64,000 nt of DNA from Chiloscyllium plagiosum. Lineage: Eukaryota. This document shows, piece after piece, positions 5,314-61,000 of this stretch (the stretch's first letter is position 1; each line of letters starts with the position of its first letter). A program made the translations under genes and the position numbers. The notes under the pieces are model-generated. The model worked only from the letters and a program-made list of their open reading frames with translations, was not told where the DNA came from and did not search any database. The stretch lies in contig NC_057754.1 in assembly GCF_004010195.1 (NCBI RefSeq), positions 10,641,239 to 10,705,238 on the forward strand, given 5' to 3'.

Positions 5314-5443
5314 GTAAAAACAATGACTGCAGATGCTGGAAACCAGATTCTGGATTAGTAGTGCTGGAAGAGCACAGCAATTCAGGCAGCATCCGAGGAC
5401 AGGCAAAATCGACGTTTCGGGCAAAAGCCCTTCATCAGGAATT
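5314..5443 (-). mobile_element. Short non-autonomous Penelope-derived element carrying a hammerhead motif
   Basis: 8-bp direct repeat gtaatgtg at 5306-5313 and 5444-5451. Same family as 17087, 28271 and 31138. Confidence 0.75.
5407..5442 (-). ncRNA. Minimal type I hammerhead ribozyme motif
   Basis: Minus strand reads attc-CTGATGA-a-gggc-tttt-gccc-GAAA-cg-TC-gatt: intact core, 4-bp stem II, GUC triplet, palindromic minimal stem III. Confidence 0.75.
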
Positions 5444-5999
5444 GTAATGTGTTGAATTGTAGTTTCTGTCTTCAGTGCTTCTGATATAATTCCAGTTGCA
5501 TGTTCCAGCAGTATTGAAAGCAGTGAATTTGTTACAGAGCTCAGCATTTTTGATTATTCAGGACAACGTTCAAGCTTTTAGTGCTGTGTTCTGTTATGGG
5601 TGAGAGTTTGCATGGCCTGGGGCTAGTGTGGCTCCTTTACACTGGATCTGAATCCATATCCATCCATTGCTCTCTTTTATGTTTGCCCTCCCGGATCTCC
5701 CCTCTGCCTTTGTCTAACTTTCTTTGGCCCTCACAATGGGTGTATTTTAACTCCGTTCTATTTTTTAATGTTACCTCTGCTGTTGTGCCTAAATTAGGTT
5801 TGCACCACTGCCTATCCCCTGACTGTGTGTTGCTGATATACCAATTTTACCTTCCTATAGAATCTTTAATCGTCAGAAATTGTTTTCACTGCATTTCTGT
5901 GAACTGCTATTCTGCAAATTATGAGCTTCGGCCAGTTCACATAACCTCCATTTTTAATTTTGTGGTTTCTGTCTCACTCTCTTTGTACTGTCTAAATCA

Positions 6000-7495: not shown

Positions 7496-7527
7496 TCTGC
7501 ACAGAGTGTGCGAAGAGATTTATTAAT

Positions 7528-7946
7528 GTTGTGGTTCTGTTCGCCGAGCTGGAAGTTTTTGTTGCAATCGTTTCGTCCCCTGGATAGGCGACATCATCAG
7601 TGCTTGGGAGCCTCCTGCGAAGCACTTCTTTGATGTTTCCTTAAGGATAGCTGGTCGTGTCGTTTCGTGGCTAGTTGATGTTCATGTATGCGGATTGTTA
7701 GCTGTCTTCCTGTTTGTCCTATATAGTGTTTTGTGCAGTCCTTGCATGGTATTTTGTACACTGGTATTTTGGGACAGACCACTATAAACACTGGAGGAAA
7801 CATCAAAGAAGCGCTTCGCAGGAGGCTCCTAAGCACTGATGATGTCGCCTAGCCAGGGGACGAACGTTTGCAACAAAAACTTCCAGCTCGGCGAACAGAA
7901 CCACAACAACGAGCACCCGAACTACAAATCTTCGCACAAACTTTGA
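7528..7946 (+). mobile_element. Penelope-like element, 5'-truncated with inverted segment; GIY-YIG fragment and two hammerhead motifs
   Basis: Minus ORF VYKIPCKDCTKHYIGQTGRQLTIRIHEH (GIY-YIG). Inverted repeat of about 113 bp (7528-7640 vs about 7796-7907). 12-bp TSD agatttattaat at 7516-7527 and 7947-7958. Confidence 0.85.
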
Positions 7947-8019: not shown

Positions 8020-8955
8020 GTTTAAAGGATCGGTACTGGGTCCACTGCTTTTTGTCATTTATGTAAATTATGTACAGTTTGTAAATTTGCAAATGACACC
8101 AAACTAGATGGTGTAGTGAACAGCGAAGAAGGTTACCTCAGAGTATAGCAGGGTCTTGATCAGATGGGCCATTGTCCTGAGGAGGGGCAGATGAAGTTTA
8201 ATTCAGATAAATGTCAGATTCTGCACTTTGGAAAGACTTAATGGTAAGGTCCTGCAACATGTTGTTGAACAGAAATACCTTGGAGTGCAGCTTCATAGTT
8301 CCTTGAAAGTGGAGTGGCAGGTAGATAGGATAGTGAAGAAGGTGTTCCGTATGCTTGCTGTTATTGGTCAGTCCATTGAGCATAGGAATTGGATAGTCTG
8401 TGCAGGACAGTGGTTTGGCCACTTTTGGAATATTGCATGCAATTCTGTCTCCCTGCTACAAGAAAGATATTGAAACTTGAATGAGTTTAGAAAAGATTTA
8501 CAAGGATGTTGCCAGAGTTGGAAAGTTTGAGCTTTATGGACAGGTTAAATTGGCTGGGGCTACTTTCCCTGGAACCTGGGATGCTGAGGTTTATAAAATT
8601 ATGAGGGGCTTGGATAGAGTAAATAAACAAGGTCATTTCCCCGCTGTAGGATAATCCAAAACTAAAGGGCATAGGTTTAAGGTGAGAGCGGAAAGATTTA
8701 AAAGGGACATAAAGGGCAACTTTTTCATGCAGAGGGTGGTGCGTGTATGGAATGAGCTGCCAGAAGAAATAATGAAGTCCAGTACAATGACAACATTTAA
8801 AACACATCTGAATGGGTATATGAATAGGAGGGTTTTGAGGGATATGGGCCAAATGCTCACAAATGGGACGAGATTAGTTTAGGATTTCTGGTCGACATGG
8901 ACGAGTTTGGCTGAAGGGTCTGTTTTCCTTGCTGTACATCTCTCTGACTCTATAA
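8020..8955 (+). mobile_element. CR1 RT/3' end, decayed
   Basis: ERFKRDIKGNFFMQRVVRVWNELP and a ctctgactcta tail. Confidence 0.85.
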
Positions 8956-9241
8956 CTACGGATGCTGGAAATCTGTAACAAAGAAAATACTGGAGAAACT
9001 TTGCAGGTCTGACAAAATCTGTGATATAAAAACAGAGATAAGGTCCCTAGTCTGGTGATCATTCATCGGAACTAAAATCAGCTCGGAAATGGTGGTATAG
9101 ATGCTGATTAATGGGTGAGTTGAGGGAAAAGAAAGGCTGATGAATGGAGACAGACCCTCGGGAAAGAGACACTTATTGGGAAGGCTGTGAGCAAATGGCT
9201 GGGAATTTGGGATGGATTTGCAGCGTTTCTCCAATGAGAGA

Positions 9242-9552
9242 ATACTGCCTTATTCGCTGCAAATGATTAATCCCGGGGCAGAGAAAGGGAGGATCCCGCC
9301 ACTCATCTCACAATAGGACCTGGCTGATTGACGGCAGCCCATTGGCCAATAGGAGGAGAGTGGGCGGGGCTGGCAGTGCAAGGGTCCTCCAACCAATGGG
9401 AATGAATGAGGGACGGGGCTAGTGGTACGACATATGCCCGTATGATCCAGCAGAGACTGGGAGTGTAGGGGTATCAGTGTGGACTGGGAGGTTTTATAAA
9501 CACCCGAATTAGAAAGTCCCGCGTTTGCAGCAAACGGGAAAACATACGGGCT
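9242..9552 (+). promoter_or_regulatory. Inverted paralogue of the ZNF promoter module at 14482-14878
   Basis: Collinear reverse-complement similarity: ggatcccgccactca, gctgattgacggca, ggtcctccaaccaat.ggaatgaa, and a 28-nt exact match. Contains CCAAT and GC boxes. Confidence 0.7.
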
Positions 9553-9592: not shown

Positions 9593-9725
9593 ATGAGAAA
9601 CTGTTGGAAAAGCTCAGCAGGTGTCTCAGACGAAGGGTCATTGGATCCAAAACGTTAACTCTGATTTCTCTCCCTAGATGTTGCTAGATTGCTGAGCTTT
9701 TCCAGCAATTTCTGTTTTCGTTTCT
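9593..9725 (+). mobile_element. Short Penelope-derived element with degenerate hammerhead
   Basis: cAGACGAa-gggtc...gatcc-AAAA-cg-TT with inverted gctggaaaagctcagca-like arms. Confidence 0.5.
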
Positions 9726-10558
9726 ATAGAGAGTAATCAGGGCCAGAAATCGCACACTACCATGTTATAGTCCAACAGGTTTATTTGAAATCACAAGCTT
9801 TTACAGCGCTGATCCTTGACTTGACCAAGGGGTAGCAGTGGACCCCGCTGAGTTTTTCCATCAATTGCTGTTTATCTTTCTGATTTCCAGCATCATCCTT
9901 TCTCTTGGTGCTTGTGTGAAAAAGAAATAACTTCTTCCCCTGTGCCCTGTATGGTGCACTGAATTTCCAGCATTTCGGGCTGTCCCTCACTCTGATTGTC
10001 CCGTTCCCTGCGACAAATAAACTCCAAGAGTTCCTTGCACTTGTTGGAAGTGAGGACAGAGGAGACATGGGAGCCGAAGAGCTCAAAATAAATTTGTGCT
10101 TTACAGATACGATAAAGGCACAATAGGTTTAACAAAAAGCTGATCTATATAATTTGTCACCCAACTAGGTAACCAGACATGTGGTGTTTAGAAACATCAT
10201 CAGAACCCAACCCAGAAAACATGGTTTGAATATAGGTAACAGTGGAATCAAGAAACGATTCAGAGAGAGATTCTTGGGAACTCATTGATGATTAACCAGG
10301 CCTAATGAACCAAGAAATCCCTTTTCACAAATCGTGTAGGTGGATAATCTTTACCCAGTGTGTATATGTTGATATACAGTAACGATAAGATACTTTCCAA
10401 AACCTACCCTCCAGTTACAGGGTAACTGTTACAAATGTAAAGAAAATTATCTCCATTTTACAAGCTTTTACTGAGCAGGAATGAACAACATCAGTACAAA
10501 TGATCCAAAGACCACAGTTCATTCCTTGATGTGAGTGAAAGCAAAATCCTTCAGTTGG

Positions 10559-11431
10559 TTATTTGTGACTTTGCTGGTGTCTCAGCAGGCTGGATGATCG
10601 AATGAATCCCTTCCCACACTCTGAACAGGTGGATGGTTTCTTCCCAGTGTGAACCTGCTGATGTGTCAGCAAGTGAATTGCTTGAGTGAATGCTTTCCCA
10701 CACTCAGAACAGGTGAATGGTCGCTCTCTAGTGTGAATTCGCTGGTGTGTTAGCAGGTTGGATGACTGTGGGAATGCCTTCCCACACACAAAACAGGTGA
10801 ATGGTTTCTCCCCAGTGTGAGTTCGCCGGTGTATCAATAGATGAGATGAGCAAGTGAATCCTTTCCCACACTCAGAACAGGCAAATGGCCTCTGCCCAGT
10901 GTGAATTCGCTGGTGGGTCAGTAGATGAGTTGCCTGCGTGAATGCTTTCCCACACTCAGAACAGGAGAATGGTCTCTCCCCAGTGTGAACTCGCTGATGT
11001 ATCAGCAGGTTGGATGACTGAGAGAATCCCTTCCCACACTCAAAACAGGTGAATGGTTTCTCCCCAGTGTGAATTCGCTGGTGTCTGAGCAGTTCGGATG
11101 ACTGAGTGAATCTTTTCCCACAATCAGAGCAGGTGAATGGTCTTTCCCCAGTGTGAACTCGCTGGTGTATCAGCAGTTTAGATGACCGAGAGAATCCCTT
11201 CCCACAATCAGAGCAAGTGTATGGCTTCTCCCCAGTGTGACTGCGTTGGTGAGTTTCCAGCTGGGATTGGTAAAGAAATCCCTTCCCACAATCCCCACAT
11301 TTCCAAAGTCTCTCCCCAGTGTGACTGCGCTGGCGTTGGGACATTTCAGATGAATCTTCACTGACCCTTCCACACACAGACGATTTGTGTTTCTCCCCAA
11401 TGTGAATGGTGCTTTTTCCTTCAATGTTCAA
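10559..11431 (-). CDS. C2H2 zinc-finger protein, 9 intact tandem fingers plus 1 degenerate; first ATG is at 11344 (261 aa)
   Basis: Uninterrupted ORF with CxxCx12HxxxH repeats and TGE(K/R)P linkers. The ORF-track start at 11431 is TTG. No KRAB or SCAN domain seen. Confidence 0.9.
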
Positions 11432-12359
11432 AATCTTGAAATTATCATAAACAGAGTGACTATTGGATTTGGATGTGGTTTTTTTTCTTCAGTCAACCTT
11501 TCAAACAGAATACAAAGTTAGAGACAGAGAAACAAGAAGAAGACACACAGGTTGTGAAACTGCACGAAATTAATCTTGTCATTTGTGGAGCTGACACAGA
11601 GGGAAACTGCTGGATTATCATTAACACTGAACTAGTTCATAAATGTCCTTGAGGGAAGGGGACTAGTCAATGTCTACACAAAATTATGGAAAGGTACAGA
11701 GGCATGAGAGTTGGCAGGGGTGGGATGCATTTTATAGATTTGCAACTCAGTCCTGTTCCTCTTTTCTTCCCATATCTTTCTAACCCTCTGAAGGACTAAG
11801 GAAAAGTGCAGAAGCAAAATGATGGAAATCGAAAATAAAAACAGAAGATGCTGGAGATACTCAGCAAGTCTTGCATCACCTGAAATGCTAACAGATGCAG
11901 GAACCATTGCAACGAGAAGAAACCTTTAGATGATCATACAAAACACCACCATATAGGTTACACGTTAAAAGTCAGAAAATGGGACTTGAGTGATAGGTGT
12001 TTGACGATCAGCATGGATACAATGGGTACATTGTGTTCTACAATTTTATATCAGAGTCTTGGACCCAATTTTGATCCCTGTTTCTCTGAGACTTTTTTTT
12101 AGTAAGCAGACAGGAGTGGCAAGCATTGGATCATTGAAATTAAACATTGGCCTTCACAGTGATAGGAGGAGAGTATGGTGTAGGGATATCCTTCTGTAAG
12201 GGCTACAGTGAGCACACACCTGGAATACCATGTGCACTTTTGTTCTCCTGTCCCTGGATGGATGCCCTGGCCATTGTGATAGTGCAAAGAGGGTTAACCA
12301 GATTGATTCCTGGGATGTCAGGATTGATGTATGAAGAGAGGCTCAATCCTCCTTTAATC

Positions 12360-17086: not shown

Positions 17087-17292
17087 TGAGTGTGGTGCTG
17101 GAAAAACGCAGCAGGTCAGGCAGCATCCGAGGAGCAGGAGAATCGATGTTTCAGCCATAAGCCCTTCCAGATGGAGGGCTTATGCCCAAAACATCGATTC
17201 TCCTGCTCCTCAGATGCTGCCTGACCTGCTGTGCTTTTCCAGCATCATGCTCTCGACTCTGATCTCCAGCATCTGTAGTCCTCACTTTCTTC
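17087..17292. mobile_element. Palindromic Penelope-derived short element, 13-bp TSD
   Basis: TSD ttatttgacattt at 17074-17086 and 17293-17305. Inverted arms of about 80 bp meeting at degenerate hammerhead cores. Confidence 0.8.
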
Positions 17293-26430: not shown

Positions 26431-26439
26431 TGCACTAAG

Positions 26440-29360
26440 CCTTCTTCTAAACCTTTTTCTTTCTATATATGCATCCAAATGCCTTTTCAAATATTGTTAA
26501 TATACCCATCTCAACAACATCCCCAGCAGCTCATTTCATATGTGTACCACCCTCTGTGTAAAAAAAGTTGCCCCTCAGGTTCCTTTTTATACTTTCCCTT
26601 CTAACTTTAAACTGATGCCTTCTAGTCCTCGATTCCCTAACGCTGGGAAAAAAGACTCAGTCCATTCACTCTACCAATGCCTCTTGTGATCTTAAACACT
26701 TCCATAAGATCCCCCTCAGTCTCCTGTGCTCTAAAGAAAAACGTCCTAGCTTGGCTAACATTTCCCTGTAACTCAGATCATTGAGTCCTGGCAACATCCT
26801 TGTAAATTTCTTCTGCACTCTTTCCAGTTTAATAGCATTCTTCCTATAATAAGGTGACCAAAACTGAACACAATACTCCAAGTGCAGCCTCACCAACGTC
26901 CTGTATAACTGCCACATAAGTTCCCACTTCTATACGGAATGCCCTGACTGATGAAGGCCAGTGTACCAAAAACCTTCTTCACTGCCCTGTCTACCTGGGA
27001 CTCCACTTTCAGAGAATCGTGCACATGAACTGCGACGTCTCTCTATTTCATACTCTCCTTAAGGCTGTACCATTCACCATGAAACTCCTACCTTGAATTA
27101 ACTTTCCAAAATGCAAGACCACACACTTATCTATTTTAAACTCTATTAACCATTTCTTGGCCCACTTTCCCAGCTGATCAAGGTCCTGCTGCAATCTATG
27201 ATAACCTTCCTCACTTTCCATGATACCGCTATTTTAGCATCATCTGCAAACTCACTAATCATGTCTTGTACATTCTCATCCAAATCATTGATATAGATAA
27301 CAAACAGCAATGGACCCAGCACAGACCCCTGAGGTACTTCACTAGTCCCAGGCCTCCAGTCCAACAAACATCCTTCCACTATTACCCTCTGCTTTCTACC
27401 ATTAAGCCAATGGTGTATCCAATTTGCCAGCTCCCTCTGGATTCCATGTGGTCTAACCTTCCACGGTAGCCAACCATACAGAACCTTATCAAATGCCTTA
27501 CTGATTCCCTGTAGACTACGTCTACAGCCCAGCTCTCATCAACCTTCTTGGTCACTTCATCACAGAACAGTATGTAATGTTTGCGGTGTGATCCCCCACG
27601 CACAAAGCCATGCAGACTACTCCTAATCAAACCCTGTCTTTCGAAATACATGTATATTTCATCCTGTAGAACCTTCTCAAGTCACTTACTTACCACAGTG
27701 TGAGACTTCCTAGTTTGTAGTTCCCAGAATTTTCCTTGCAGCCCTTCTTGAACAAGGGCAGAACATTCGCTAACTTCCAGTCTTCCAGGAACTTACCTGT
27801 GGCTAACGATGGTGCAAACATATCAGCCAGGGCTCCCGCAATTTCTTGTCTAGCCTCTGGATATGTCTGGTCAGGACCAGGAGATTTATCCACCTTCATA
27901 CATTCTAACACATCCAACACCTCCTCTGCTGTGACACAGACTGTCCCCACGATATCACCACTAACTTCCCCAAGTTCCCAAATCTTCATTTCTTTTTCCA
28001 TGGTTAACATGAGGAGGAGATACTCATTGCGGATCTCGATCGTCTCCTGCCGTTCTATGTCCATTTTGGTCCTTGAGGGGTTCAAATCTCTCTCTGGTTA
28101 TTCTTTGTCCTTTCATATACTTAAAGACCTTCTTTGGATTCACCCCGATCTTCTCAGCTAAGGTTATATCGTGCCTCGTTTTCACCATCCTGATTTCCTT
28201 TTTCAGTTAGCGCATGTATCCTCGACATACCTCCAGGAATTCCCTTGATCCCAGCTGCCTGTCCCTGAGCTGAAAATGTGTTGCTGGAAAAGCGCAGCAG
28301 GTCAGGCAGCATCCAAGGAGCAGGAGAATCGATGTTTTGGGCATGAGCCCTTCTTCAGGACTTTCTCCTAGAAGATTTTAACCTACTGCAAATCCTCTTA
28401 CAAGGATGCCTTCCTTGAAGTAGCTCTCTTAAAACTTTCTCCTGTCTGTCCCTGAGCCATGCCGCCTTTTTTCTGGTGAAAGCCTCGATATCTGTTATCA
28501 TCCAGGCTTCCCTATTCTTGCCACCTTTGCCCTTCACCTTCACCGGAACATATAAACCTTGACCTCAAGCTATCACGCTTTTGAAGGTCTCCCACATAGC
28601 AGAGGTCCCTTTACCTGCAAACAACCTACTCCAATCAACCCCTGCAAGCTCCTGTCTAATTACAGCAAAATGTATGAATTTAGAACTTGAATCTGTGGAC
28701 CAGTTTTGTCCCGCTCCAAAACTACTGTAAAATTAATAGAACTATGGTCACTTGTCCCGAAGTGCTCCCCCACTGTCACCTCAGTCACCTGTCCTGCCCT
28801 ATTTCCCAAAAGCAGGTTGAGTTTTGCCCTTCCCGAGTAGGACCCTCTTATATACTGCTTGAGGAAACTTTCCTGAATGCACTTAGCAAATTCCACCTCA
28901 TCTAAGCCCTTAATGCTTTGGCAGTCTCAGTCTTTGTCAGGAAAATTAAAATCCCCTGCTATGACATTGTTAGTACTCCTGCGAGTCTCCCCAGTCTCCC
29001 TGCATATTTGTTCCTCTAATTCCCATTGACTATTTGGGGATCTATAGTACAACCCCAATAATGTCACCAGCCCTTTCTTATTTCTTAGCTCCACCCACAA
29101 AGCCTTACTGGATGAACGTTTAGTTATTTCATCTCTGACTACTGCTGTAATACTTGCCTTAATCAGAAATGCAACACCCCCTCCCCTCTTCGCATTACCT
29201 CTGTCCTGCCTAAAGCACCTGTACCCTGGCACTTTAAGCTGCCAGTCCTGTCCCTCTTTTAGCCATGCTTCTGTAATGGCTATAATATTCCAATCCCACA
29301 TATCTATCCACACCCTGAGTTCACTGGCATTAACCAGTCAGCCGTCTTGCATTGAAATAG
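26440..29360 (-). mobile_element. CR1 ORF2 (EN+RT), decayed
   Basis: ORF fragments 26666-29313 with [24 protein letters not shown]. Confidence 0.9.
28271..28445 (-). mobile_element. Short Penelope-derived element with degenerate hammerhead, inserted in CR1
   Basis: TSD ctgtccctgagc at 28259-28270 and 28446-28457. Minus strand reads CTGAAGA-a-gggc-tcat-gccc-AAAA-ca-TC-gatt. Confidence 0.75.
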
Positions 29361-31137: not shown

Positions 31138-31243
31138 GGCTCTATGCCTGTATTCCTGATGAAAGGCTTTTGCCTGAAACGACGATTTTACGACTCCTCA
31201 GATGCTGCCTGAACTGCTGTGCTCTTCCAGCACCACTAATCCA
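31138..31243 (+). mobile_element. Short Penelope-derived element with hammerhead motif, 14-bp TSD
   Basis: TSD gattagtgggacca at 31124-31137 and 31244-31257. Reads attc-CTGATGA-a-aggc-tttt-gcct-GAAA-cg-AC-gatt. Confidence 0.8.
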
Positions 31244-31591: not shown

Positions 31592-31900
31592 ATTAGATTA
31601 GATTACAGTGTGGAAACAGGCCCTTCGGCCCAACAAGTCCACACCGACCCGCCGAAGCGCAACCCACCCATACCCCTACATTTACCCCTTACCTAACACT
31701 ACGGGCAATTTAGCATGGCCAATTCACCTGACCTGCACATCTTTGGATTGTGGGAGGAAACCGGAGCACCCGGAGGAAACCCACGCAGACACGGGGAGAA
31801 TGTGCAAACTCCACACAGTCAGTCACCCGAGGCTGGAATCGAACCCAGGTCCCTGGCACTGTAAGGCAGCAGTGCTAACCACTGTGCCACCGTGCCGCCC
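31592..31900 (-). mobile_element. HE1/V-SINE, full length and young-looking
   Basis: Reverse complement begins gggcggcacggtggcacagtggttagcactgc; B box ggttcgattcc; (ctaat)n tail. Confidence 0.9.
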
Positions 31901-31904
31901 ACAC

Positions 31905-33401: not shown

Positions 33402-34185
33402 CTCCAGCCTCACAGCCCTCCCTATCTCTGTAATCTCCAGCCTCACAGCCCTCCCTATCTCTGTAATCTCCAGCCTCACAGCCCTCCCTATCTCTGTAAT
33501 CTCCAGCCTCACAGCCCTCCCTATCTCTGTAATCTCCAGCCTCACAGCCCTCCCTATCTCTGTAATCTCCAGCCTCACAGCCCTCCCTATCTCTGTAATC
33601 TCCAGCCTCACAGCCCTCCCTATCTCTGTAATCTCCAGCCTCACAGCCCTCCCTATCTCTGTAATCTCCAGCCTCACAGCCCTCCCTATCTCTGTAATCT
33701 CCAGCCTCACAGCCCTCCCTATCTCTGTAATCTCCAGCCTCACAGCCCTCCCTATCTCTGTAATCTCCAGCCTCACAGCCCTCCCTATCTCTGTAATCTC
33801 CAGCCTCACAGCCCTCCCTATCTCTGTAATCTCCAGCCTCACAGCCCTCCCTATCTCTGTAATCTCCAGCCTCACAGCCCTCCCTATCTCTGTAATCTCC
33901 AGCCTCACAGCCCTCCCTATCTCTGTAATCTCCAGCCTCACAGCCCTCCCTATCTCTGTAATCTCCAGCCTCACAGCCCTCCCTATCTCTGTAATCTCCA
34001 GCCTCACAGCCCTCCCTATCTCTGTAATCTCCAGCCTCACAGCCCTCCCTATCTCTGTAATCTCCAGCCTCACAGCCCTCCCTATCTCTGTAGACTCCAG
34101 CCTCACAGCCCTCCCTATCTCTGTAATCTCTAGCCTCACTGCCCTCCCTATCTCTGTAATCTCCTCCAGCCTCACAGCCCTCCCT
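33402..34185 (+). repeat. 33-bp minisatellite, about 24 near-identical copies
   Basis: Unit ctccagcctcacagccctccctatctctgtaat. Confidence 0.97.
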
Positions 34186-34609
34186 GTCTCTCATTACTCC
34201 AACTTCATGAACATCTGAGGTATGTGCATTCCTCTAATTCAAGCCTGATAAGGACAACCCATTTTTATTTCTCCAGTTGAAGGCAGTTTCAGATTCCTCT
34301 CCCCGATCTTTAGAATTTCCATCTGAACCCCTCCACCTCTCTACCTCACTTCCCACCTGAAATGATTGACTCCGATGAGTCACCTCCTCTAATATCTCCT
34401 TCTCTGACCTGGTTTCAATTATTCGCTCAATATATCCCTATATTAATTGTATGCTGTACAGAAAAAGGCTCTGCAGCCATCAAGTCTGTGACAGTTAAAA
34501 ATACCCAATTAAATATTCCAATCCCATTTTCCAGCAGTTGGCCTGTAGCTTTATGAGCTTTCACAAGTGTGCATCCAAATATATCTCAAATGTCTCGGAT
34601 CATGTCTTT

Positions 34610-38180: not shown

Positions 38181-38945
38181 ACAGGACTTCTGCACCTGCC
38201 ACACTTAGAGACAGTGAGGTTCAGTGTAATTGTCACTGTGTGATGACATCACACACAAGACCATGGATCATCTGTGTCTGTGAAAACTAGAAATCACCAC
38301 ACATTGTGAAGGGTGGGAGAGAGCCCGAGACGGTGCACAGCTGCTATATTGACAACATTGGATCAATGAGAGGGTGTGATGTTGGGGGTTATAAAGTATG
38401 AGGGCATTTGGAAAATTAGTCAGAGCTAACTGCCCATCGAGCCGGTGAGCAATGGCCATGGGAAGAAATAAACATCTTGCTCTCGCAGAAATCTCAGAAG
38501 GCACTATCTATCAAAAGGTACATTTTCCTGTAAAAGCAATAAAAAAATAAGAAGACGACCCAGAGAGAAGACAGCAGAATTGAAAAGATGGAAGGAAGTA
38601 ACAGATTCGAAAGACCAGAAGGAAGACAGCATAAGAGACTGTGTGGTCTTGAGATTAAGTTAATATAAAGCTTGATAATTTTGTTACTGAAACAGCATTT
38701 TTATAGATTTGGGGTCAGACACTAATTACTTCAGAAAAAGAGGGCTTAGCTTATTAGTTTCTGTTTAGTGATGTCTGTTAGAGTTAGGAAAGTAAATTGT
38801 TTTTTTTTCTTTAAACAGTGGATATCAAGGGTTTTCATTCACTCACTCAGACTTTAACAGATTACAAAGCAAGATGAATTTTTCTGGGTGTTTTGGTTTT
38901 ACTTAGCAGAAGGGTTCAACATCTTGGGTGCTCAACCTCTGGGAT

Positions 38946-39285
38946 TTAGACAGCGTTGTATAGATCGGGTCTAGGATTTGGACAGGATTGGATAGATCGG
39001 GTCTGGAATTTGGACAGGATTGGATAGATTGGGTCTGGAATTTGGACAGGGTTGGATAGATCGGGTATGGGATTTGGACAGGCTTGGATAAATTGGGTCT
39101 GGGATTTGGACAGGGTTGGATAGATCAGGTCTGGGATTTGATTAGGGTTGGATAGATCGGGTCTGGGATATGGACAGTGTTGGATAGATTGGGTCTTGAA
39201 TTTGGAGAGGATTGGATAGATCGGGTCTGGGATATGGACAGGGTTGGATAGATTGGGTCTGGGATTTGGACAGGGTTGGATTGAC
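38946..39285 (+). repeat. 32-bp tandem repeat, about 10 copies, in the LTR element leader
   Basis: Unit gggtctgggatttggacagggttggatagatc. Confidence 0.95.
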
Positions 39286-41931
39286 CTGGACAGATCAAGA
39301 CCAGGATCTGTACAGATTTGGACAGATTTGAACAGACTTGCCAGCAGAATTTTAAACACACATGGGGATTAATGTGCTAGATCTTCCAATCAAACTTAGG
39401 TGAGAAAAAATATGTTTTAAGTTCAACAATTATAGTTGGTTAGATTAAAAGTGAGAGAACTGGCACTTTCAGTAAGTAAATGTTTTCTGGGCGTGGAAGA
39501 AGTGACATTGGGAGTTTTACAAAAAGTGAGCAAAGAAAAGCTATTGCAATTGGCAGACAAGCTGGAGCTGGGGTTGCCTGTGTCTCTGAAAAATGGTGAG
39601 GTTATTGCTGAAACAGCGCAACATTTAAATGTGCTGGAAAGGCCATTAGAATCTTTGGAAAAGCCTAAAATTCAATTGCAAATGAAGCAGCTTGAATTTG
39701 AGGAAAACGTAAGGGAGAGAAAATTCTTAGCGGAGCAGAGAGAAAGAGAGAGAGCGAGAGAATGAGAGAGAGAACAAAGAGAGAGAGAGAGTTTGAACTT
39801 CAGAAGTTGCAAATTAGTCAGGGAAGTCAAATGGAGATGGAAATGGAGATGAAAGGAGAATGTAAAGGTGTAAACACACATGTTAAAACATTGCCACATT
39901 TTTGATGAGAAAGATGTCAAAGCCTTTCTTATTTCATTTGAAAAAATGGTTAGGCGGATGGAATATCCAGAAAACTTGTGGGTAATGCTAGCTTGGACTA
40001 AGGGTGGTAGGCAGGGCTAGAGAACAGCGCTGTCATGGATGAGGGGTCAAGAGATTATAAAAATGTCAAACAGGCTATTTTGAGTGACTCTGAATTGGTA
40101 GCAGAAGCATATAGACAGTGGTTCAGAAACATAAAGAAGGAACCAGTTATCTCTATTATTGAGAGATGAAAGTATTTACACTCTTCCTGACATTTTACCT
40201 AAAAGAGTAATATTTTGTGCAATAAATGGATAGAAATTTAGCGTTCCCCTGTGTAAGATCAGGTTGGAGAGCCAAATCAAGACCGGGGAAGTGACAGTGG
40301 GAGTGATTAATAGAATGTCAGTTCCAGGAATACAGTTTGCCCTTGAAAATGACCTAGCAGGTGGGGTGATGCCTACTATCATAAATTATGGCAAGAAGGA
40401 AAAACTAAAGAGAAAGACAAAGGAGTTGAGGTTCAGTTAGCAGACACCCTGTTTGATAAAATAGTACAGGGAAAATCTGAACAAGTAAAGGGTCAGGCAG
40501 CGGTATTTAGTCCTGAAAGGCTAATGGACTTACCACAGAAAGATGAGGCGATAAAAGATCTCTATCATGATGCATACTCAGAAAAGGAATCAGAATGCAT
40601 TCCCGAGGGTTATTATCTTAGAGATAGAATTCTAAGATGAAAATGGAGACCATGGCAGGTTAGTGCAGAGGAAAAATGGGTGAAGTCCAACAGACTGTGT
40701 CACCTGTAGCATACAGACAGGAAGTATTGCAGGTAGCAGATGAATTACCAGTAGGAGATCATCTAGGTGTGGGCAAGATCTCAGGCTAAGGTACAAAAGC
40801 ACTTCTGTTGGCCTGGACTGCATAAGGATGTGGTTGAATTTGCTGTGCATGTCATACATGCCAAATGGTAGAGATGCCACAGGCAGTAATAAAACTAGCA
40901 CCTTTCTTACCAATTCCCGTATTTGAAGAAGTTTTCATACGGGTTATGATTGACAGTGTAGGTCCCCTCCCTGAAACTATAAGTGAGAACCAATATTTGC
41001 TAACAGTAGTAGTTGTGTCTACCAGATTTCCGGAGGCAATTCCATTCCGGATTGTTAAGGCAAAAGAGGTGGTGGAGGAGTTGGTAGCTTTCTTTATCCA
41101 GTACCGGTTACCTAGGGAGATTCAGTCAGATCAAGATTCTAATTTTACTGCTAAACTATTTAAGAAAGTCATGGATAATTTAGGAATACAATGCTTTAAA
41201 TCAAGTGTGTATCATCCTGAATCCCAGGGAATTTGGAAAGTTGGCATCCGACCCTAAAGGTATCTTATTCATATTTTTTGTCATTACAGATGCCATAAAT
41301 GAATCTTCTCAGTTTATTCATTTTGAGTTAACAGTTGGACACCAAGTGAGAAGGCCTTTGAAATTAATTAAAGAAAAATTGATAGGACCAAAGTCAGAGA
41401 CCTCACACTTGGATTATTTATCAGAGGTGAGGGAGAGTTTAAACCAGGCAGGGGAATTAGCTAAACAGCACCTGAAGAGGCCACAGCATAGAATGAAGCA
41501 TGTGGCAGATAAAAATTCGAAAATGTGGACATTTTCCCGCTGGGATAACGTATTTGTGTCATTTCCAGTAGTAGGAGCTCCCTTCAAAGCCAGGTTTAGT
41601 GGTCCCTATCAAATTGAGAAAAGTGGAGTCAGGTAAACCATCTGGTAAAGATACACAGAGGAAAAGACTGTTTCAGGTATGTCACGTGGATATGTTGAAC
41701 CCTTACTATGATAGACACAGGGAAGTGGAGAACCAGGTGTCAGTTACTGCCCAGCAGAGTGAGGAATCAAATCCAGATAACGTGGATGTGCCTCAAAATA
41801 AGTTAAATAATGAGGGAGTCTTTGAAGAATGGGATAGGATAGTCAGATATCTGTCTCAGGAGCAAAGAACCGGGTTGAAAAGTTTGTTGCAGCAATATGA
41901 GGACATATGTAGGAATAGAATGGGGAAGACT

Positions 41932-42871
41932 CAACACTGGAGCTCTCCAGGGGTACGTACTAAGCTCCCTACTGCACTCACTGACTACTCATGATTGCAT
42001 CGCCAAATACCAGACTAATGCCATTTACAAGTTCGATGATGCCACCACCATAGTCGGTCGATTCTCAGATGGCGACAAAACAGACTACAGATGGGAGGTG
42101 GAAGACCTGGAAAAATGATGCATTGAGAACAACCTAGCTCTCAATGCTGGCAAAACCAAGGAACTAATTGTTGACTTTCAGCGGGATGTTACTCATGCCC
42201 CCCTACACATTAACAGCACAGAGGTGGAACGAGTGGAGAGCGTTAAGCTTCTCGGAGTGGTCATCCACAACAAGCTTTCCTGGATTCTTCATGTGGATAC
42301 ACTGTTTACAAAGGCCTAACAACATCTCTTCTTCCTCAGGCAGCTGAGGAAATTGGGCATGATGGCGAATACCCTCGCCAATTTTTATAGGTGCACCATC
42401 GAGAGCATTCTGTATGGATGTATCACTGCCTGGTATGGCAACTGTACCATCCAAGATCAGAGATGGTTACAGAGAGTGGTGAACTCGGCCCGGACAATTA
42501 CAAAGGCCAAACTCCCATCTATAGAATCCATCTACCAGGCCCGCTGTCAAAGAAAGGCCGCCAGCATTCTCAAAGATCCATCCCACCCTGGCATTGTTTC
42601 TCTACAACCTCTACCATCAGGGAGAAGGTACAGAAGCCTGGACACACACACCAGCCAGTTTTGAAACAGTTTCTACCCGACTGTTGTTAGAATACTGAAT
42701 GGACTCATAAACTCTTAACATTCGCCTGTACCTGTGTTTTTGTTTTTTGCTGCTGTTTAACTATTAATTACTTATCTATGCTATTTAACCCTGTGATCTG
42801 CCTGTATTGCTCACAAGACAAAGCTTTTCACTGTGCCCTGGTACACGTGACAATAAATTCAATTCAATTCA
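41932..42871 (+). mobile_element. Rex1/Babar-like LINE 3' fragment
   Basis: YKFDDATTIVG; LANFYRCTIESILYGCITAWYGNC; LPSGRRYRS; (aattc)n tail; TSD aagact at 41926-41931 and 42872-42877. Confidence 0.85.
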
Positions 42872-43358
42872 AAGACTGATGCTATTGTGCATAATGTGGA
42901 AGTAGGGAACGCTGTTCCATTAAAACAACACCCCCACAGGCTTAATCCTCTCAAAGCCGCACAAGTTCAGAATGAAGTGGACGTGATGTTCAATGAAGAT
43001 ATCACCGAACCAAGTCAGACCGAGTGGAGTTCACCAATCATGTTAGTTCCTAAACTTGACAGAACTCAACAATTTGCTGTGAAACATCGGAGGGTCAACA
43101 CCGTTACTAAAGTCGACTTATATTCAATATCCAATATCCAGTTGCTGGAGGACTGTTTTGAGAAAGTTAACCCAGCCCTTACATCACAAGCTTGGACTTA
43201 CTGCGTGGTTATTCGTGGGTACCTTTATTGGAGAAAGCAAAAGAAGTTTCTGTGTTTGTAACCTCAAATGGGCTTACCAATTCACAGTGATGCCACATTC
43301 CAAAGGCTCGTGAACAGATTTGTGGCAGGATTCAGTACTTGTCAGTTTATATCGATGA

Positions 43359-51169: not shown

Positions 51170-52555
51170 AGCCATGTGATCTGTCTGCTGGCTCAGCAGG
51201 GTGGATGAGTGAACTAACTGCTTTTTAAACACAGAGCAGGTGAATGATTTCTCCCCAGTCTGAATTCGCCAAAGTTCTGAGAGTTGAGATGATCACCTGA
51301 ACCCAGTCCCACAGTGAAAGTACCTGAAAGGTCTCTCATCATGTGAACATGTTGATGGGACATCAGTTTCACAGAACTTCGATAGCGCTTCCTACACAGT
51401 AGGCATTTAAGAGGTCTCTACTCAATGTGAACACATTGATGATAAAACAGTCCCTAGGCGTTTGTGTTGTGATTCCCACAAGGAGCCATTTAAAGGGTGT
51501 CTCCTCAGTGTGAACACATTGATGACAAGTCAGTCCCAAGAGTGTGTGTAGTAATTCTCGCAGTCTGGGCATTTACACAGTGTGAACTTGCTAGTGTCTC
51601 AGCAGGTTGGATAACCGAATGAATCCCCTCCCACACTCAGAGCAGGTGAATGATCCCTTCCCAGTGTGAACCTGCTGGTGTTTGATGGGGTTAGAAGATT
51701 ACCAGTCCCACAGAGAGCGCACATGAACAATCTGTCCTTAGTGAACGTCTTGTCCTGGAGCTTTTGTAGCATTTGTCACAGACTGGGAATTTAAAAAGGT
51801 TGTCAGTGGGGAATCCAAGATGGCGGTGACCCAGGAAGACTGAGTCTATAGTGCTCCTCCCAAGACCTGGGCACAGTGGGTCACCTACCCCCTACCAAGC
51901 TCACCAAATCATTTATAAATCATTTATAATAGTTTAGTAACTGAATTAGTGGTTTAATATTACATTTAAGCTACATTTAAGCAACTTTATCCTAAGTTAA
52001 AATGACTAAAGGGAAGGGAGCCCGCAGCTCTCAGCAAGCAGGAACCCCTCCCCCACACTCTCCAGCTGCAGCAGAGGCGTCCACAGCCGCCCCGGGGGAC
52101 TTACCTACAGTAGCAAGNNNNNNNNNNNNNNNNNNNNNNNNNNNNNNNNNNNNNNNNNNNNNNNNNNNNNNNNNNNNAGTCTGGACTTTTAAAAATTCTG
52201 TGTGAATACATTGGTCGAACAGCCCCCTGAAATGTTTCCAACAGTTCCCACAGTCCAAGCATTGACATGGTCTCTCCTCAGTGTGAATGAGCTGGTGTTG
52301 CAGCAGGTTAGATGACTGAGTGAATCCCTTCCTACACATTGAGCTGGTGAATGGCCTGTTACTGGTGTGACTGTGTCCATGTATTTCCAGCTCAGAAGAG
52401 GAAATGAATTCCTCCCCACAATCCCCACATTTCCACAGCCTCTCCCCAAAGTGAGTGCGTTTGTGGTTTGTGAGTATGATGATGGCTGAAGCTTTGTTCA
52501 CACATGTAACACGTGTACAGTTTCTCTCCACTGTGAACAGGCTTTTCCCTTCCAT
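51170..52555 (-). pseudogene. C2H2 ZNF pseudogene, interrupted by an L1-like insertion and a gap
   Basis: MEGKSLFTVE...WKCGDCGEEF..QSSNLLQHQLIHTEERP. Frameshifted or degenerate fingers continue at 51170-51800. Confidence 0.8.
51808..52117 (+). mobile_element. L1/Tx1-like LINE 5' end (5'UTR and ORF1 start), rest hidden in the gap
   Basis: Starts ggggaatccaagatggcgg (YY1 motif) downstream of a TT/AAAA site. ORF MTKGKGARSSQ from 52002. No catalytic domain is visible. Confidence 0.55.
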
Positions 52556-53305
52556 GTTCAATTGTGATAAAGTTCTGTTTGTGATAAATTGGGCAACTCC
52601 ATCAAATCGAGGTGTGATGGCTAAATCTTCCCTTTCTGATATCCTGTGAAGTCAATGTCAACCAAAACAAAATAAATTGAGAGGGAATCAATCACATGAC
52701 TCTGGCTTCTCTGTGAGAATCGAGAGAGCGAAAGGCAGGGAATTAAAGGTAGCGATTTTAGACACTTACAACTTGATGAGAACTTTGCCAGAATCTTCCA
52801 AACACTTGGTCTCCACCGGCAAGAAGGAGCAGGTTAACAGGTAGATGTGAACACTATCACGTCCAAGTTTAGATAAGCAAGATAAAGAGCAGTGTTCCAT
52901 TGGCTGACAGTAAATTTATGCAGGACACTGATTTAAGATTTTGGGCCAGAGTTATTGGGAGATTTGAGAAAGGAATCTTATATTACTTTCATTTTACTCA
53001 ATACTTACATTCACAGGCCAATAGTATTCATTGCTGAATATATAATAACTCAAGTGACTCTGTAAGGTGTTGATGTGTTGTTTGATTTGAGTTTTCGAAC
53101 TGCAAATTCTTTTCAAATGTCTTGTCAAATAAGCTTACAAAAACTACTGCTGTCAGTCCAGGACAGAAATTAATTAAAAATAAGCAGTTCTCTTTTTTAA
53201 AACTGTATTTAGTTGCTTCCCTTCTCACCTCCTGCTCATAATCTCCATTCCTCTCAGTTCAAGAGAATGATTCACAACATTCTCTCTCCTGGCCTGAGAT
53301 TACTG

Positions 53306-53951
53306 ATTAGATTAGATTCCCTACAGTGTGGAAACAGGCCCTTTGGCCCAACTAGTCCACACCGAACCTCTGAAGAGTAACCCACCCAGACCCATCTCCC
53401 TCTGACTAATGAACCTAACACTATGGGCAATTTAGCATGGCCAATTCACCTGACCTGCACATCTTTGGACTGTGGGAGGAGACCAGAGCACCCGAAGGCC
53501 ACCCACGCAGACACAGGGAGAATGTGCAAACACCACACAGACAGTTGACCAACGCTGGCATCGAACATGGGACGGTGGTGCTGTGAGGCTGCAGTGCTAA
53601 CCACTGAGCCACTGTGCCACTGTGCTTAGATTCCCTACAGTATGAAAACAGGCCCTTCAGCCCAACAAGTCCATACCGACCCTCTGAAGGACAACCCACC
53701 CAGATCCATTCCCCTACCTGATATTTACCCCTAACTAATGCACCTAACGCTATGGGCAATTTAGCATGGCCAACCCACCTGACCTGCACATCTTTGGACT
53801 GTGGGACGATACCGGAGCACCCAAAGGAAACCCACGGAGGCACAGAGAGAATGTGCAAACTCCACACAGACAGTCACCTGAAGTGAGAATCAAACCCAGG
53901 TCCCTGGTGCTGTGAGGCAGCAGTGCTAACCACTGAGACACCATGCTGCCC
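53306..53951 (-). mobile_element. Two tandem HE1/V-SINEs
   Basis: Two complete SINE bodies, 53306-53625 and 53626-53951. Confidence 0.9.
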
Positions 53952-54287
53952 TCAAGTGCATCCTGTCTAGTATCCATTGCCCCTACAGAGGCAGCTGTGA
54001 ATTGCGGCTGGTCTTCAGGAGAAGCTTTGACTTGTCCCATTTTGTAAAAATTCGGGGTCTGCAGCATCCCACAAAATGTTTAAAAAGCCTCTACATTCAA
54101 CCGCTCAGTCCATCGCCTCACTGTGACTTTTTGTGGAGATGAAAGACAAAGCCTCAGGATTGCTCCCACTGTGCATGCTCCAGACTGTCGATATGGGCGA
54201 AGGTACTGAGCTTGCACAGTGAACATCACTGCAGGAGATAGGGGATATTCACAAGCGTTGGGAATGCTGGGTTTAGAGGCCACCATT

Positions 54288-58000: not shown

Positions 58001-61000
58001 CTCCTCTACAATCTGTTTAGCTGTGATATTGCATAATGGCTCCTTGAAATCTAGTATTGACACCATTTCCTATTGTGAAGTCATTTCCTGTTCTTTTTCT
58101 CAAGGGATGGTAACTGGGATCCATGTCAATGTATTTGTTGGAATACCATGCTTCTAGGAATTCTCATGCGTGTCTGTTTGGCTTGTACTAGGATGGATGT
58201 GACAATAGGAAATGACATTAAATGCAGGAAATGACATCACCAACCCAAGGAAATCCAAACACATACATAGAAAGAGGGCTACACCACCAGTGCTTCATTC
58301 GGAGGCTCGCTGAAGATGTTAGTATGGTGACGAAATGTCTGAAAGTGAATCTTCCAGCTCAGCAAGCAAACCTACATCCAGAACCTCAACCTGAGCTACA
58401 AATCTTCTCAAAACTTTCTAACTTTATTACTGCCTGTGGTTTTCTAAGTACCTGGCATACATGACATGTCTAGCAAACTTTGGCTACATCCTTGTGCAGT
58501 CCAGGCCATGAAAAAATGTTGTTGTATTTCAGCTTGGGTTTTTCTTACCCCTAAATAACCTCCTATTGGTAGTTCATACATCACACACACAACATCTCAT
58601 TCCTTTCACCCACGGGCAATATGACTTGATGAATCTCTGCCCATTTTAATTACTTGCATATGTGATGGTCTCCATTTTCTCATTAAGACATTATTTTTAA
58701 GATAATAACATTCAGGGATACATTCTGATTCTTTTTCTGTGTACGCCTTTTGAGAAAAGTGCTATAAATTTTCATCTTTCTGCTGTAACTCAGTAAATTT
58801 CTCTGAGCTATTTTGTCATCCATCTGCTCTTGTTTTGTCTCAACCATCTGATCAAACAGGGTCTCTGCTCATTCCACTTCAACTTTCCTATCTGTATTCT
58901 TTCATCTCTCCTGTTTCAACTGGTGACTTTGTGACCTCGTTACCACACAGTCAGGAAAAAAATCCAGGATTTGCTTCCTATAATAGCTCAGTTGCCTGAT
59001 TTTCCACTGACTTCTCAACCACAGGCACACTCCTACCTGGGAACCAGTTATATAATTAGCAAGGACAAATTGTATTCCAGGGGCTGAGCGTTTTTCTGGT
59101 ACTTATGCCACCACGTCTCCACTTTTCACTGGAGATTCTAACCTCTATCTATTAATTGAGCATGTCTTGTCTCACTGTGAATTCCACTTACTAACATTTT
59201 TTCTGGTGATAGACCTTCTGAGTTACATATACTCTCATCTTTCATCATCAAAGATTGAGAGGATTCTGTACCTCTTTATATTGTAACCTCTTTATCTGCT
59301 GTTACTGGCCTATGTGAGTAAACTTTACCTTTGAAGGTATCTGGTTTAAGAAGGTAGGGCTACTCCTCCTTAACTAACCTCCGACCAGATTATACACTCT
59401 GGTGCAGCTTTCTAGCCTCCACTGAGCTTTCCATTACCACTCCAGCAAAATTCACTGGCTTATCCAATGTTCCTACATATGCCTTCCCAGTGTTTTTTCT
59501 AACCCATCAACACTGATTTCGTTTGGCCTACCTTACTGCAGTGAAAACACTGGAGCTTTACAACAACTCTCTCCCTTTCAAGGGTTTCCTTTTTGTCCTG
59601 TGGTAGGTTATCCTTATGATCTTCACTGAGGTCTCCCTTCCCATACCACATAAAGATTTCTCTTTTGCTTAATTTCTTTCCCTCATGGATTGAAATTGGT
59701 GTTGGAAGCCAAACTTTGATTTATGGAGCAACTCAAAATCATCAGCCATTTCAGCTGTTAATCTTGATGTTTGAACTCTCTGATCTTCTATGTGAGTTCT
59801 CACAACCTCAGGAATTGAATTTTTGAATTCCTCTACCCTTTTAAGTTGACTTTTTTGTCTAAGTGCCAATTTCTGACTTTCAACCTCTCTCTTTTTCCAT
59901 TTCTTCTCTTTCTCATTCTCTTTTTGCTCTCTCTCTCTTTCCTCCTTTGCTTTTAATCGTAATTCAAACAGTTTCATTTCTTTTCCTGTTTCTTTTTCTT
60001 TTGTCTCTAATGCAAGCTGCTTCATTTCCAATTGAGGTTTACCCATCTCTGAAGATTCTGATGGCATTTCCTGCAAATTTAAACACTGAACTGTTGCTAT
60101 AATTGTCTTTCCTGTCCTCATGGAAGGAGGCAACTCCAACTCCAACTTGTCTGCCAATTTCAGCAGCTTTGCCTTGCACACCTTTTGTAAAACCCGCAAA
60201 GTCACCTCTTCCACCCCCAGAAAAGCCTTAGTGACTGAAAGAGCCATTACTACACCAAGCACTATTTCAACCAACCAAATTCAAGATCCAGAACAAAAGA
60301 TACTCACACCTACCACTCACTGCCCAAAGGCAGTCCAACTCAAAAGTCCAACTACCCTAATCCCAAATTGGAACTAATGAATAAATCCCACAAAGAACCC
60401 CCAATCTGTTATGGACCAGGCCAGACCCCCTCAAAACATTTCAAGAAGGTAGCCCAGACCCTACATTTTCTAATTGTTTTAGGCTGGTGTAAGGTGGATA
60501 TTCCTGGAGTGATGCAGCTGGTCAAACCACTCAGTTTTCAACAAAACAGAATTTATTTACAGGGACTGAATGAAACACAAGCAAATGAAAACAAAATTTA
60601 CAACAAAACTATTTGAAACCCCAACTGACATGATGTCCCCCACAACTTAACAAAGAGCTGTTTAGATTTCCTGCAACATTCCAAAACACACCCCTTTGCA
60701 AAAAGGTAAATTCAAACACAGGTTCTCACAGGAGCGTGAGAAATTGCAGATAGGATCAGCCAGGGATCATTGGTGGAAACATGGAACTTTTTTTTTCTAA
60801 GCAGCTTCTCGAGGTCCCCTGTTACAAATTAAAACAAGTGAGAAAAATTCTTAAATTGGGAGAATTGGCCACTCCACTTTCATTGTACAAGCGTTTTTAA
60901 AAAAACAAACCTAAAAGCCCTTTTCCCTGATTCTTGTCTTAGGCAGTATCTGTTAGTCATAATCAACATGGCCTAAGCCCAGACAAATCAGAACCTTTGC

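Follow-up and report, generated by a model that had tools for sequence, protein, structure and literature searches.

The window analysed here is a stretch of 64,000 nucleotides from the Chiloscyllium plagiosum genome (contig NC_057754.1, positions 10,641,239 to 10,705,238). Judged by sequence, it carries 3' ends of four lineages of Penelope-like elements (PLEs), three of them Neptune-type and one Penelope/Poseidon-type (Table 1). Profile HMMs made with sequence from elsewhere in the genome detect 14 element arms in the window and none in the reversed window. The original prediction had listed hammerhead motifs at seven positions and degenerate ones at three more, and hammerhead-derived sequence is present at every one of them. 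It had overlooked the coreless family D fragment at 11801-11882, which the profile HMMs recover together with second arms at 9595-9625 and 17087-17168. The five inserts that it described as bordered by target-site duplications (TSDs) were confirmed as such; the six other window inserts tested gave no TSD. Random boundary pairs score at least 8 in 13 of 300 cases and at least 12 in 4 of 300.

Table 1. PLE-derived inserts in the window, with the state of their hammerhead cores and their TSDs
Feature	Position	Strand or arms	Hammerhead core	TSD	Evidence
Neptune-type family A, tailed 3' end	5314..5443	(-)	C3 at 5438; cleavage predicted after 5411; sole fully intact minimal hammerhead in the window	5306-5313/5444-5451 (8 bp)	HMM arm, strict descriptor, TSD
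Penelope/Poseidon-type family B head-to-head insert	7528..7946	both strands; minus arm tailless, plus arm tailed	minus 7600 (U16.1>A); plus 7836 (GAAA>GAA, one A short)	7516-7527/7947-7958 (12 bp)	
GIY-YIG endonuclease fragment within the family B insert	7642..7761	(-)			97.5% identity with the L034 locus in its endonuclease region (40 aa)
Neptune-type family D end, old, tailed	8950..9076	(-)	9060, degenerate	search empty	
Family D head-to-head remnant	9595..9728	minus arm 9595-9625 (short), plus arm from 9627	9626, degenerate		
Neptune-type family C end	9730..9817	(-)	9800, degenerate; GGAGC/GCTCC stem; intact relatives show a GC palindrome		
Family D 3' fragment without core	9844..9902	(+)			profile HMM
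Family D 3' fragment without core	11801..11882	(-)			profile HMM
Neptune-type subfamily A1 head-to-head insert	17087..17292	minus arm tailless, plus arm tailed	both broken (17165 G12>A; 17170 CUGANGA)	17074-17086/17293-17305 (13 bp)	
Subfamily A1 composite	28271..28441	tailless minus arm, then plus-strand tail end reading into ORF start, then second short tail end	minus 28361 (G12>A)	28255-28270/28442-28457 (16 bp, 1 mismatch)	
Family A end without tail	31141..31243	(+)	31156 (U16.1>A)	31124-31140/31244-31260 (17 bp, 1 mismatch)	
Inverted GIY-YIG remnant, older Penelope/Poseidon subfamily B2	58050..58178	(-)			46% identity in tblastn (E 9e-6)
Tailed 3' end of older subfamily B2	58180..58420	(+)	58310; core letters retained, stem II shortened by 3 nt, TG in place of the CG palindrome	search empty	

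Upstream, every family runs into an ORF that combines a reverse transcriptase (RT) with a GIY-YIG endonuclease, entering it at the GIY-YIG end, in agreement with the original proposal of several PLE families inserted by such proteins. In families A and A1 the GIY-YIG domain upstream of the core ends in FRLGTLQPQGIN and carries a CX4CX2C linker. Family C is tied to a second endonuclease with a linker, whereas the ORFs tied to family B encode an RT and an endonuclease that has none. Family D is tied to older ORFs; no linker before the GIY-YIG domain was seen for it, and its assignment leans on these matches at 32-40% identity. Families A/A1 and C are probably Neptune rather than Nematis, and family B presumably belongs to Poseidon, by elimination and general likeness. 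The families may already carry names in Repbase, Dfam or the supplements of bioRxiv 10.64898/2026.07.22.740005. Counted over loci that were partly picked by the very searches counted, the best upstream matches pair B with Poseidon (71), A with NeptuneA (61), A1 with NeptuneA (23), C with NeptuneC (12) and D with NeptuneA (5), next to 18 cross matches between families, mostly from distant neighbours. We found 123 full-length relatives of at least 728 aa with RT, many of them also with GIY-YIG; at locus L115 Pfam places GIY-YIG above its cut-off and RVT_1 weakly. An intact full-length parent was not recovered, the long frames being broken by assembly gaps or frameshifts: the parent was pieced together from overlapping partial frames, the longest of which hold about 440 aa of element sequence, and was never seen whole.

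The core layout had been described as persisting. Most window copies are broken, and the CUGANGA...GAAA..UH core with stem II is kept by the family majorities and by the copy at 5438, the only fully intact one of about 11 window cores. A strict descriptor passes two window motifs, 5438(-) and 58310(+), against a background of two matches in total over 30 shuffles of the window. In the genome sample, all core letters are kept in 146 of 330 arms that cover the core. The nucleotide inserted between A9 and stem II is A in families A, A1, C and D and U in family B, and pair 10.1-11.1 is G-C in most cores, or G-U through CpG decay. The self-complementary 15.2/16.2 positions read CG in A, A1 and B, and GC in 41 of 43 family C cores.

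Stem II differs between families, as had been noted from the window alone, and the differences are compensatory. Covariation between families extends to both stems I and II and to the stem III palindrome at 15.2/16.2 (CG vs GC): pair I.1 is C-G, A-U or U-A, I.2 is U-A, A-U or C-G, II.2 is G-C or U-A, and II.3 is G-C, A-U or C-G, tabulated by family rather than scored with a phylogeny-corrected statistic such as R-scape. Inside families copies decay at CpG, with the palindrome CG turned into CA or TG in 29 of 58 A1 and 8 of 10 D cores. Family-wide alignments show 2-5% mismatches in the GAAA/U part of the core vs 7-12% at downstream non-CpG positions. We tentatively attribute this difference, which counts against the explanation favoured below, to ascertainment and subfamily mixing. 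At E<=1 an Rfam scan matched none of the hammerhead families; it gave only microRNA-hairpin matches below gathering scores, and neither supports nor refutes the hammerheads. One fold-back matched a plant microRNA family, far below threshold.

The 3' ends of the inserts occupy two fixed positions about 35 nt apart, with and without a tail. In 13 of 14 head-to-head pairs the tail is present on one arm only, the 14th being ambiguous; the window inserts at 7528, 17087 and 28271 each combine an inverted 5'-truncated arm with a tail on one end only. The inverted arms are unequal and variable in length, and TSDs in the genome sample, mostly 10-19 bp, enclose both arms. The 5' breakpoints of the window copies are individual; relative to the core, such breakpoints range between +57 and -800. 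The breakpoint test covered 50 loci within the initial 3.5 Mb of contig C1. Among 52 family A arms, nearly every 5' end is distinct (12 are censored by assembly gaps), and one of the 52 starts exactly at the cleavage site, the others starting upstream of or inside the core. The 5' ends are not uniformly spread: their density at -10..+9 of the family A core is 0.021/nt vs 0.006-0.008/nt elsewhere. Ends are piled at the hammerhead 5' edge in 64 of 158 A1, 44 of 90 C and 63 of 119 D arms, but in only 2 of 38 B arms, and Neptune breakpoints are enriched about threefold at this edge. An apparent cluster at the cut site (8 of 44 A arms, +25..34) was due to imprecise HMM starts where the sequence is polymorphic; with better references it disappeared. 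We also rejected the idea that the 5314 copy stems from a master with a deletion whose junction recurs in L007 and L010: what the copies have in common there is the TSD, and the junction occurs at just two loci.

The inserts had been proposed to form a window-wide system. Arm density is about 220/Mb in the window vs 399/Mb in 120 sampled 10-kb stretches (E cut-offs of 0.05 and 0.01, respectively), so the window is not special and adds nothing beyond the genome-wide background. This background is very large. At least 183,862 intact cores were counted genome-wide with patterns that gave no control matches, the strict descriptor finds 48 matches in 580 kb vs 0-1 per shuffle in five shuffles, and arms would number roughly 1.4 million. 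Short PLE ends make up about 4% of sampled bases.

Outside the window, the genome contains mini-tandems without an ORF, in which two or more hammerheads lie 200-380 nt apart. In the subfamily concerned, 559 read-through junctions were counted genome-wide vs 24,795 arms (about 2%), and about 20 of 28 sampled loci short-circuit from the ORF start back into the 3' UTR. Two or more tandem units that each have an intact hammerhead occur at a minority of loci, for example L170, L184 and L203; the window holds no tandem of intact cores. Array units have differing junctions, with the exception of L166, whose two 248-nt units differ at one base. Insertion as one unit is shown for only some ORF-less arrays, because TSDs surround 3 of the 14 tried (L199, L184 and L201; the match at L165 is internal). 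One ORF-less lineage has been re-copied: 18 loci have a common 281-nt unit junction, and 15 of them carry A9>G in the shared unit. Of 23 motifs with A9>G, 11 lie inside tandems, vs at most 3.6% of intact motifs.

We consider it very probable that four endonuclease-bearing (EN-bearing) PLE lineages left the window inserts as 3' ends (pseudo-LTRs), truncated at the 5' side and often head-to-head, that these carry the minimal type I hammerhead of the parent, and that they are likely dead-end products of its insertion reaction. The basis for this reading is ORF colinearity, individual 5' breakpoints, two fixed 3' ends, one tail per pair, TSDs that enclose the insert as a whole, and covariation from family to family, with CpG decay inside families. 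By analogy with work on the anole Poseidon element, the element protein would cut both target strands, and reverse transcription would be primed at two internal RNA sites, one giving a tail and the other none. Both cDNAs would usually stop early, in Neptune lineages often near the hammerhead 5' edge, and would then be joined head-to-head or to the target. Selection on the hammerhead would act only in active parents, where cleavage is predicted only as a dimer or with the help of protein; in solitary copies the hammerhead would be a passenger.

The original prediction favoured a retrozyme-like set, in which non-autonomous master RNAs would cleave themselves and form circles, PLE proteins would copy them in trans, and the short inserts would be the outcome. 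We regard this as improbable for the window inserts, even though ORF-less mini-tandems of the expected kind exist, short-circuits recur, one unit junction is common to 18 loci, and, according to the available text of bioRxiv 10.64898/2026.07.22.740005, such elements are known from one chondrichthyan. The pile-up of 5' ends at the hammerhead also points this way, being unlike uniform truncation, and could hide short master RNAs. Against it stand the individual breakpoints, the colinearity with ORFs, the endonuclease piece in the family B insert, the broken cores and the lack of tandems in the window. Copies start upstream of or within the core and not at the cut site, and the heterogeneous array junctions are unlike rolling circle copying of a single circle. 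The most re-copied lineage carries A9>G at most of its loci. About 2% of one polyA single-cell run yielded 1,017 and 267 family reads without start or end pile-ups or back-joints, a weak test, since fragmented polyA ends cannot show cleavage. What stands of the retrozyme proposal is a small minority elsewhere: a discrete ORF-less unit amplified as a family is represented by the 18-locus lineage and not by the window inserts.

Plain SINEs of tRNA origin, CR1 tails or DNA transposons of the MITE type, resembling hammerheads by chance, would match the sizes (100-210 bp), the TSDs and the long terminal inverted repeats, and CR1 fragments are plentiful in the window. This identity is ruled out, with hardly any residual probability, by the ORF links of all families and by covariation: the 3' ends are tied to PLE ORFs, and the variable 5' ends are colinear with the PLE 3' UTR. 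The original prediction was right that these are not plain SINEs. The inverted arms are unequal with a one-sided tail, and the descriptor counts exceed those of shuffles and controls. ARAGORN found no tRNA-like head, itself a weak test. It is also very unlikely that the host has kept some solitary copies as working ribozymes or as hairpin RNA sources near zinc-finger genes. The intact young core at 5438, long fold-backs that might supply double-stranded RNA, and family reads in the polyA run are in keeping with such a use. Most window cores, however, are broken and decaying at CpG, and 98% and 84% of the reads continue into sequence of other kinds, which is what passengers within host transcripts should give. 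The family A motif has a stem I of just 2 bp and a predicted intermolecular stem III of 4 bp that is weak (-3.1 kcal/mol), and single minimal hammerheads did not cleave in vitro according to the available text of PMC4209133.

Beyond the dead-end reading of the window inserts, a broader interpretation of the genome is possible but doubtful. It holds that the genome has the largest reported hammerhead load and records the birth of pseudo-LTRs and retrozymes, in that the RT would leave the 3' UTR for the start of the ORF and thereby build re-copyable ORF-less mini-tandems. A9>G in the internal hammerhead of the most-copied lineage would then mean that intact tandem hammerheads cut RNA in vivo and thereby block copying. 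If true, this would be genomic evidence of PLE ribozyme activity in vivo.

As found, the inserts are of value for annotation, as short PLE ends would wrongly be labelled SINEs, MITEs or microRNA hairpins. Because of their huge copy number, the genome is a natural record of how PLEs insert, a cycle still poorly understood, in which two priming sites, cDNA stop points, the regeneration of partial tandems and hammerhead action in vivo become countable questions. The accessible part of PMC2377424 terms this regeneration unexplained, and that of PMC11167929 reports that the hammerhead is not required for insertion in vitro.

Minimal hammerheads (min-HHRs) were described in the pseudo-LTRs of metazoan PLEs, including fish Xena, Poseidon and Neptune, by Cervera & De la Peña (2014; PMC4209133, here from its available text). 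The present motifs resemble them in their type I layout, the extra nucleotide after A9, G10.1-C11.1, the palindromic 15.2/16.2 and the short stem I, and also in the many families per genome, the mostly solitary copies taken as truncated PLEs and the close opposite-strand pairs. That text mentions no shark, and its counts of about 4,000 in coelacanth and about 9,000 in Xenopus, obtained with different descriptors, are far below ours. In comparison with animal non-LTR retrozymes (PMC7229834 and bioRxiv 10.64898/2026.07.22.740005, as far as accessible), we see the same PLE pseudo-LTR origin and type I hammerhead, and the unit length of the mini-tandems elsewhere agrees, some having two intact units. 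The window copies differ in being solitary or inverted with minimal, mostly broken cores, and in the family B insert also in holding coding sequence, which retrozymes lack; the arrays elsewhere differ in their heterogeneous junctions. The insertion products of EN+ PLEs, as presented in the accessible parts of PMC8557442, PMC3846280, PMC2377424 and PMC11167929, share with ours 5' truncation, an inverted truncated copy, a palindromic junction, a tail of 30-40 bp on one end, partial tandems, TSDs and a GIY-YIG at the C terminus. The CX2-5CxxC linker of the Neptune clade is present in families A/A1 and C, and the linker-less C-terminal GIY-YIG of the Penelope/Poseidon clade in family B. Most inserts here differ in being fold-backs of 100-250 bp that consist of the pseudo-LTR only, and for the breakpoint enrichment at the hammerhead 5' edge in Neptune and not in Poseidon we found no description in the accessible PLE insertion literature. 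The available texts of PMC8557442, PMC3846280, PMC11167929 and PMC4209133 describe the same structures. This kind of arrangement is already known; this genome only holds it in extreme abundance.

Hammerhead-derived sequence is present at every position where the original prediction placed a core. Family profiles built from other parts of the genome detect 14 arms (single PLE 3'-end copies) in the window and 0 in the reversed window. The core layout said to persist across copies does not: two motifs only pass a strict descriptor, one of them complete, and in the remaining cores U16.1, G12, one of the As in GAAA or further positions are gone. Five target site duplications (TSDs) had been claimed and five were found, at lengths of 8, 12, 13, 16 and 17 bp rather than 8-14 bp, the two longest with one mismatch each; in control trials with random boundaries, 13 of 300 scored 8 or higher. 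A TSD search at six further window inserts found none.

Features of the window by position
Feature	Position (strand)	Description
Lineage A with subfamily A1	5314 (A); 17087, 28271 (A1)	CX2-5CxxC linker
Family C	9730	CX2-5CxxC linker
Family D	8950, 9595, 9844, 11801	older ORFs, 32-40% identity, four loci
Family B	7528, 58180	linker-less endonuclease plus RT
Family B endonuclease	7642-7761	40 codons
Older endonuclease remnant	58050-58178	
Motif passing strict descriptor	5438 (-)	complete core
Motif passing strict descriptor	58310 (+)	
Insert	28271-28441	tiny version of the jump from the ORF start back to the 3' UTR
C2H2 zinc-finger exons	10562-11488 (-); about 51172-52651 (-)	Pfam zf-C2H2 arrays
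Broken LTR-retroelement-like remnant	40838-43258 (+)	weak integrase core match; nearby RT-like frame without Pfam match
Tandem array	33237-34295	33-bp units, many identical; open frames on both strands
Tandem array	38874-39353	32-bp units
Second dispersed repeat	31603-31903, 36188-36491, 53321-53954, 62204-62407	after CR1-type 3' ends; without hammerhead core
GC-rich stretch	9250-9440	two CCAAT-like and GC-box-like motifs; amid old family D/C cluster

In the rest of the window, 84-bp repeats common to both zinc-finger places suggest a gene cluster. The second dispersed repeat presumably resembles the shark HE1 SINE. Upstream likeness of the element at 8950 extends roughly to the GC-rich stretch, an extension that may come from alignments linked up by chance.

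The proposed link of the hammerhead families to PLEs is upheld by upstream colinearity with GIY-YIG/RT ORFs. The insert at 5314 has thirty close relatives with a common tail end and upstream reaches of differing length, the longer ones continuing into a GIY-YIG endonuclease. At locus L115, elsewhere in the genome, a 415-aa frame of lineage A matches Pfam GIY-YIG above the cut-off and RT weakly; it is matched by 123 proteins of at least 728 aa with RT (E<=1e-40). An intact full-length parent element, sought among the genome loci, was not recovered. The CX2-5CxxC linker is a feature of Neptune and Nematis (PMC8557442). The linker and general clade features point to a Neptune/Nematis type for families A/A1 and C, while the missing linker, with such features, would place family B with Penelope/Poseidon. 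The assignment of family D is less sure.

Across families the core is constant, and stems I and II, like the palindrome of stem III (CG in A, A1 and B versus GC in C), vary with compensating changes; tabulated by family, these include the stem II differences noted originally. Within families, the palindrome CpG has decayed in 29 of 58 A1 cores and 8 of 10 D cores. Among core-covering arms in the census sample described below, 146 of 330 keep the full set of core letters. Compensation between families together with CpG decay within them argues, on sequence grounds, that the hammerhead is selected in active parents and decays once inserted. Counter to decay, mismatches are at 2-5% in the GAAA/U part versus 7-12% at downstream positions, which may reflect selection on copies; because members of this alignment were picked by core matches and subfamilies are mixed, we do not take the low values as selection. 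Single minimal hammerheads (min-HHRs) showed no in vitro cleavage (PMC4209133), and the anole motif required protein for cleavage (PMC11167929).

A census of 120 stretches of 10 kb (round positions, contigs C1-C44, 1,163,580 called bases) yielded 464 arms, or 399 per Mb, which make up 4.3% of bases; the control gave no hits, and profile training used this sample too. Extrapolation to the 3.56-Gb genome, probably of shark type judging by its repeats, gives ~1.4 million arms; the window is less dense (~220 per Mb). Whole-genome pattern counts, covering the GGGY..RCCY type and family C and leaving out Poseidon cores, returned 159,880 and 23,982 intact cores, respectively, with 0 control hits. Counts in earlier work, made with other descriptors, are ~4,000 min-HHRs in coelacanth and ~9,000 in Xenopus (PMC4209133), and 126,247 canonical hammerhead motifs in axolotl (PMC7229834). 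For whale shark, 10.1101/443036 already describes an expansion of PLEs within introns. Among the papers returned by our literature search, none gives a description of these shark-type families or their numbers.

We determined 5' breakpoints for 52 family A arms at 50 loci in the first 3.5 Mb of C1, picked via a motif 3' of the core; 12 of the arms were gap-censored. The ends span +57 to -804 relative to the core, nearly every one different, and 1 of 52 lies exactly at the cut site. They are about threefold denser at -10..+9 than elsewhere; A1, C and D also show this pile-up and B does not (boundaries +/- ~10 nt, few long references for old families). In a probable DNA run, depth drops several-fold just upstream of the family A core, a drop inflated by cross-mapping subfamilies, and is level for family B. 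The pile-up is likely caused by annealing of two cDNAs at the motif's self-complementary start, RT stalling, or RNA-start run-off in the pseudo-LTR (pLTR). RNA reads (n=1,017 and 267, ~2% of one polyA single-cell run, in whose library 5'-OH ends are invisible) have no end pile-up and mostly run on into unrelated sequence.

Family A has 559 tail-to-ORF-start read-through sites versus 24,795 arms. In ~20 of 28 distinct sampled loci, counted by eye, the sequence then returns to the final 15-170 nt of the 3' UTR, so that tandems lacking an ORF arise from units of ~200-380 nt. One 281-nt junction is common to 18 loci on 16 contigs (L160-L177), a re-copied tandem lineage with upstream units in common, where the last junction is mostly locus-specific and SNP markers are reshuffled among loci. 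This combination suggests that the mini-tandems would be made by template jumps in reverse transcription rather than by rolling on one circle. They may instead derive from post-insertion microhomology deletions, proposed in PMC3846280, or from unequal crossing-over, as in the preprint 10.64898/2026.07.22.740005. Two pairs of loci (L167/L170 and L175/L176) also have a 5' flank in common. The shared unit carries A9>G, a change that would impair hammerhead cleavage, at 15 of the 18 loci. Exact genome-wide copies number 148 for this variant versus 15,704 for the intact motif, and on contigs C1-C3 11 of 23 A9>G motifs lie inside read-through versus at most 3.6% of intact ones. A single founder fully accounts for this enrichment, which is therefore not evidence for cleavage. 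What merits further study is the number of copies, the clustering of breakpoints and the lineage of mini-tandems.

Head-to-head inserts, two arms in inverted orientation, hold 141 of 245 core-covering Neptune arms. Arm 3' ends fall at ~+90 or ~+128 from C3, and 13 of 14 head-to-head pairs have a tail on one arm only. At L195, L196, L197, L198, L201 and L204 the 3' end of the insert lies within the ORF start, past the tail seen elsewhere, a sign that priming may at times begin farther downstream. PLE ends often lie within or adjoin ends of other PLE families (L158, L170, L217 and others), which may mean that existing copies are preferred as targets. EN+ PLE inserts are described as having an inverted copy, a tail at one end and a TSD (PMC8557442, PMC3846280), and the inserts here match on all three points. 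The arm anatomy also agrees with the anole element, for which two priming sites within the RNA and cutting of both target strands are shown (PMC11167929). The original reading of the window inserts as a retrozyme-like set is not supported. Non-LTR retrozymes, which the 2026 preprint reports in one chondrichthyan, have tandem units and a discrete unit; the window inserts have neither. They work like the PLE pLTR/min-HHR kind, and the families in the window are members of it.
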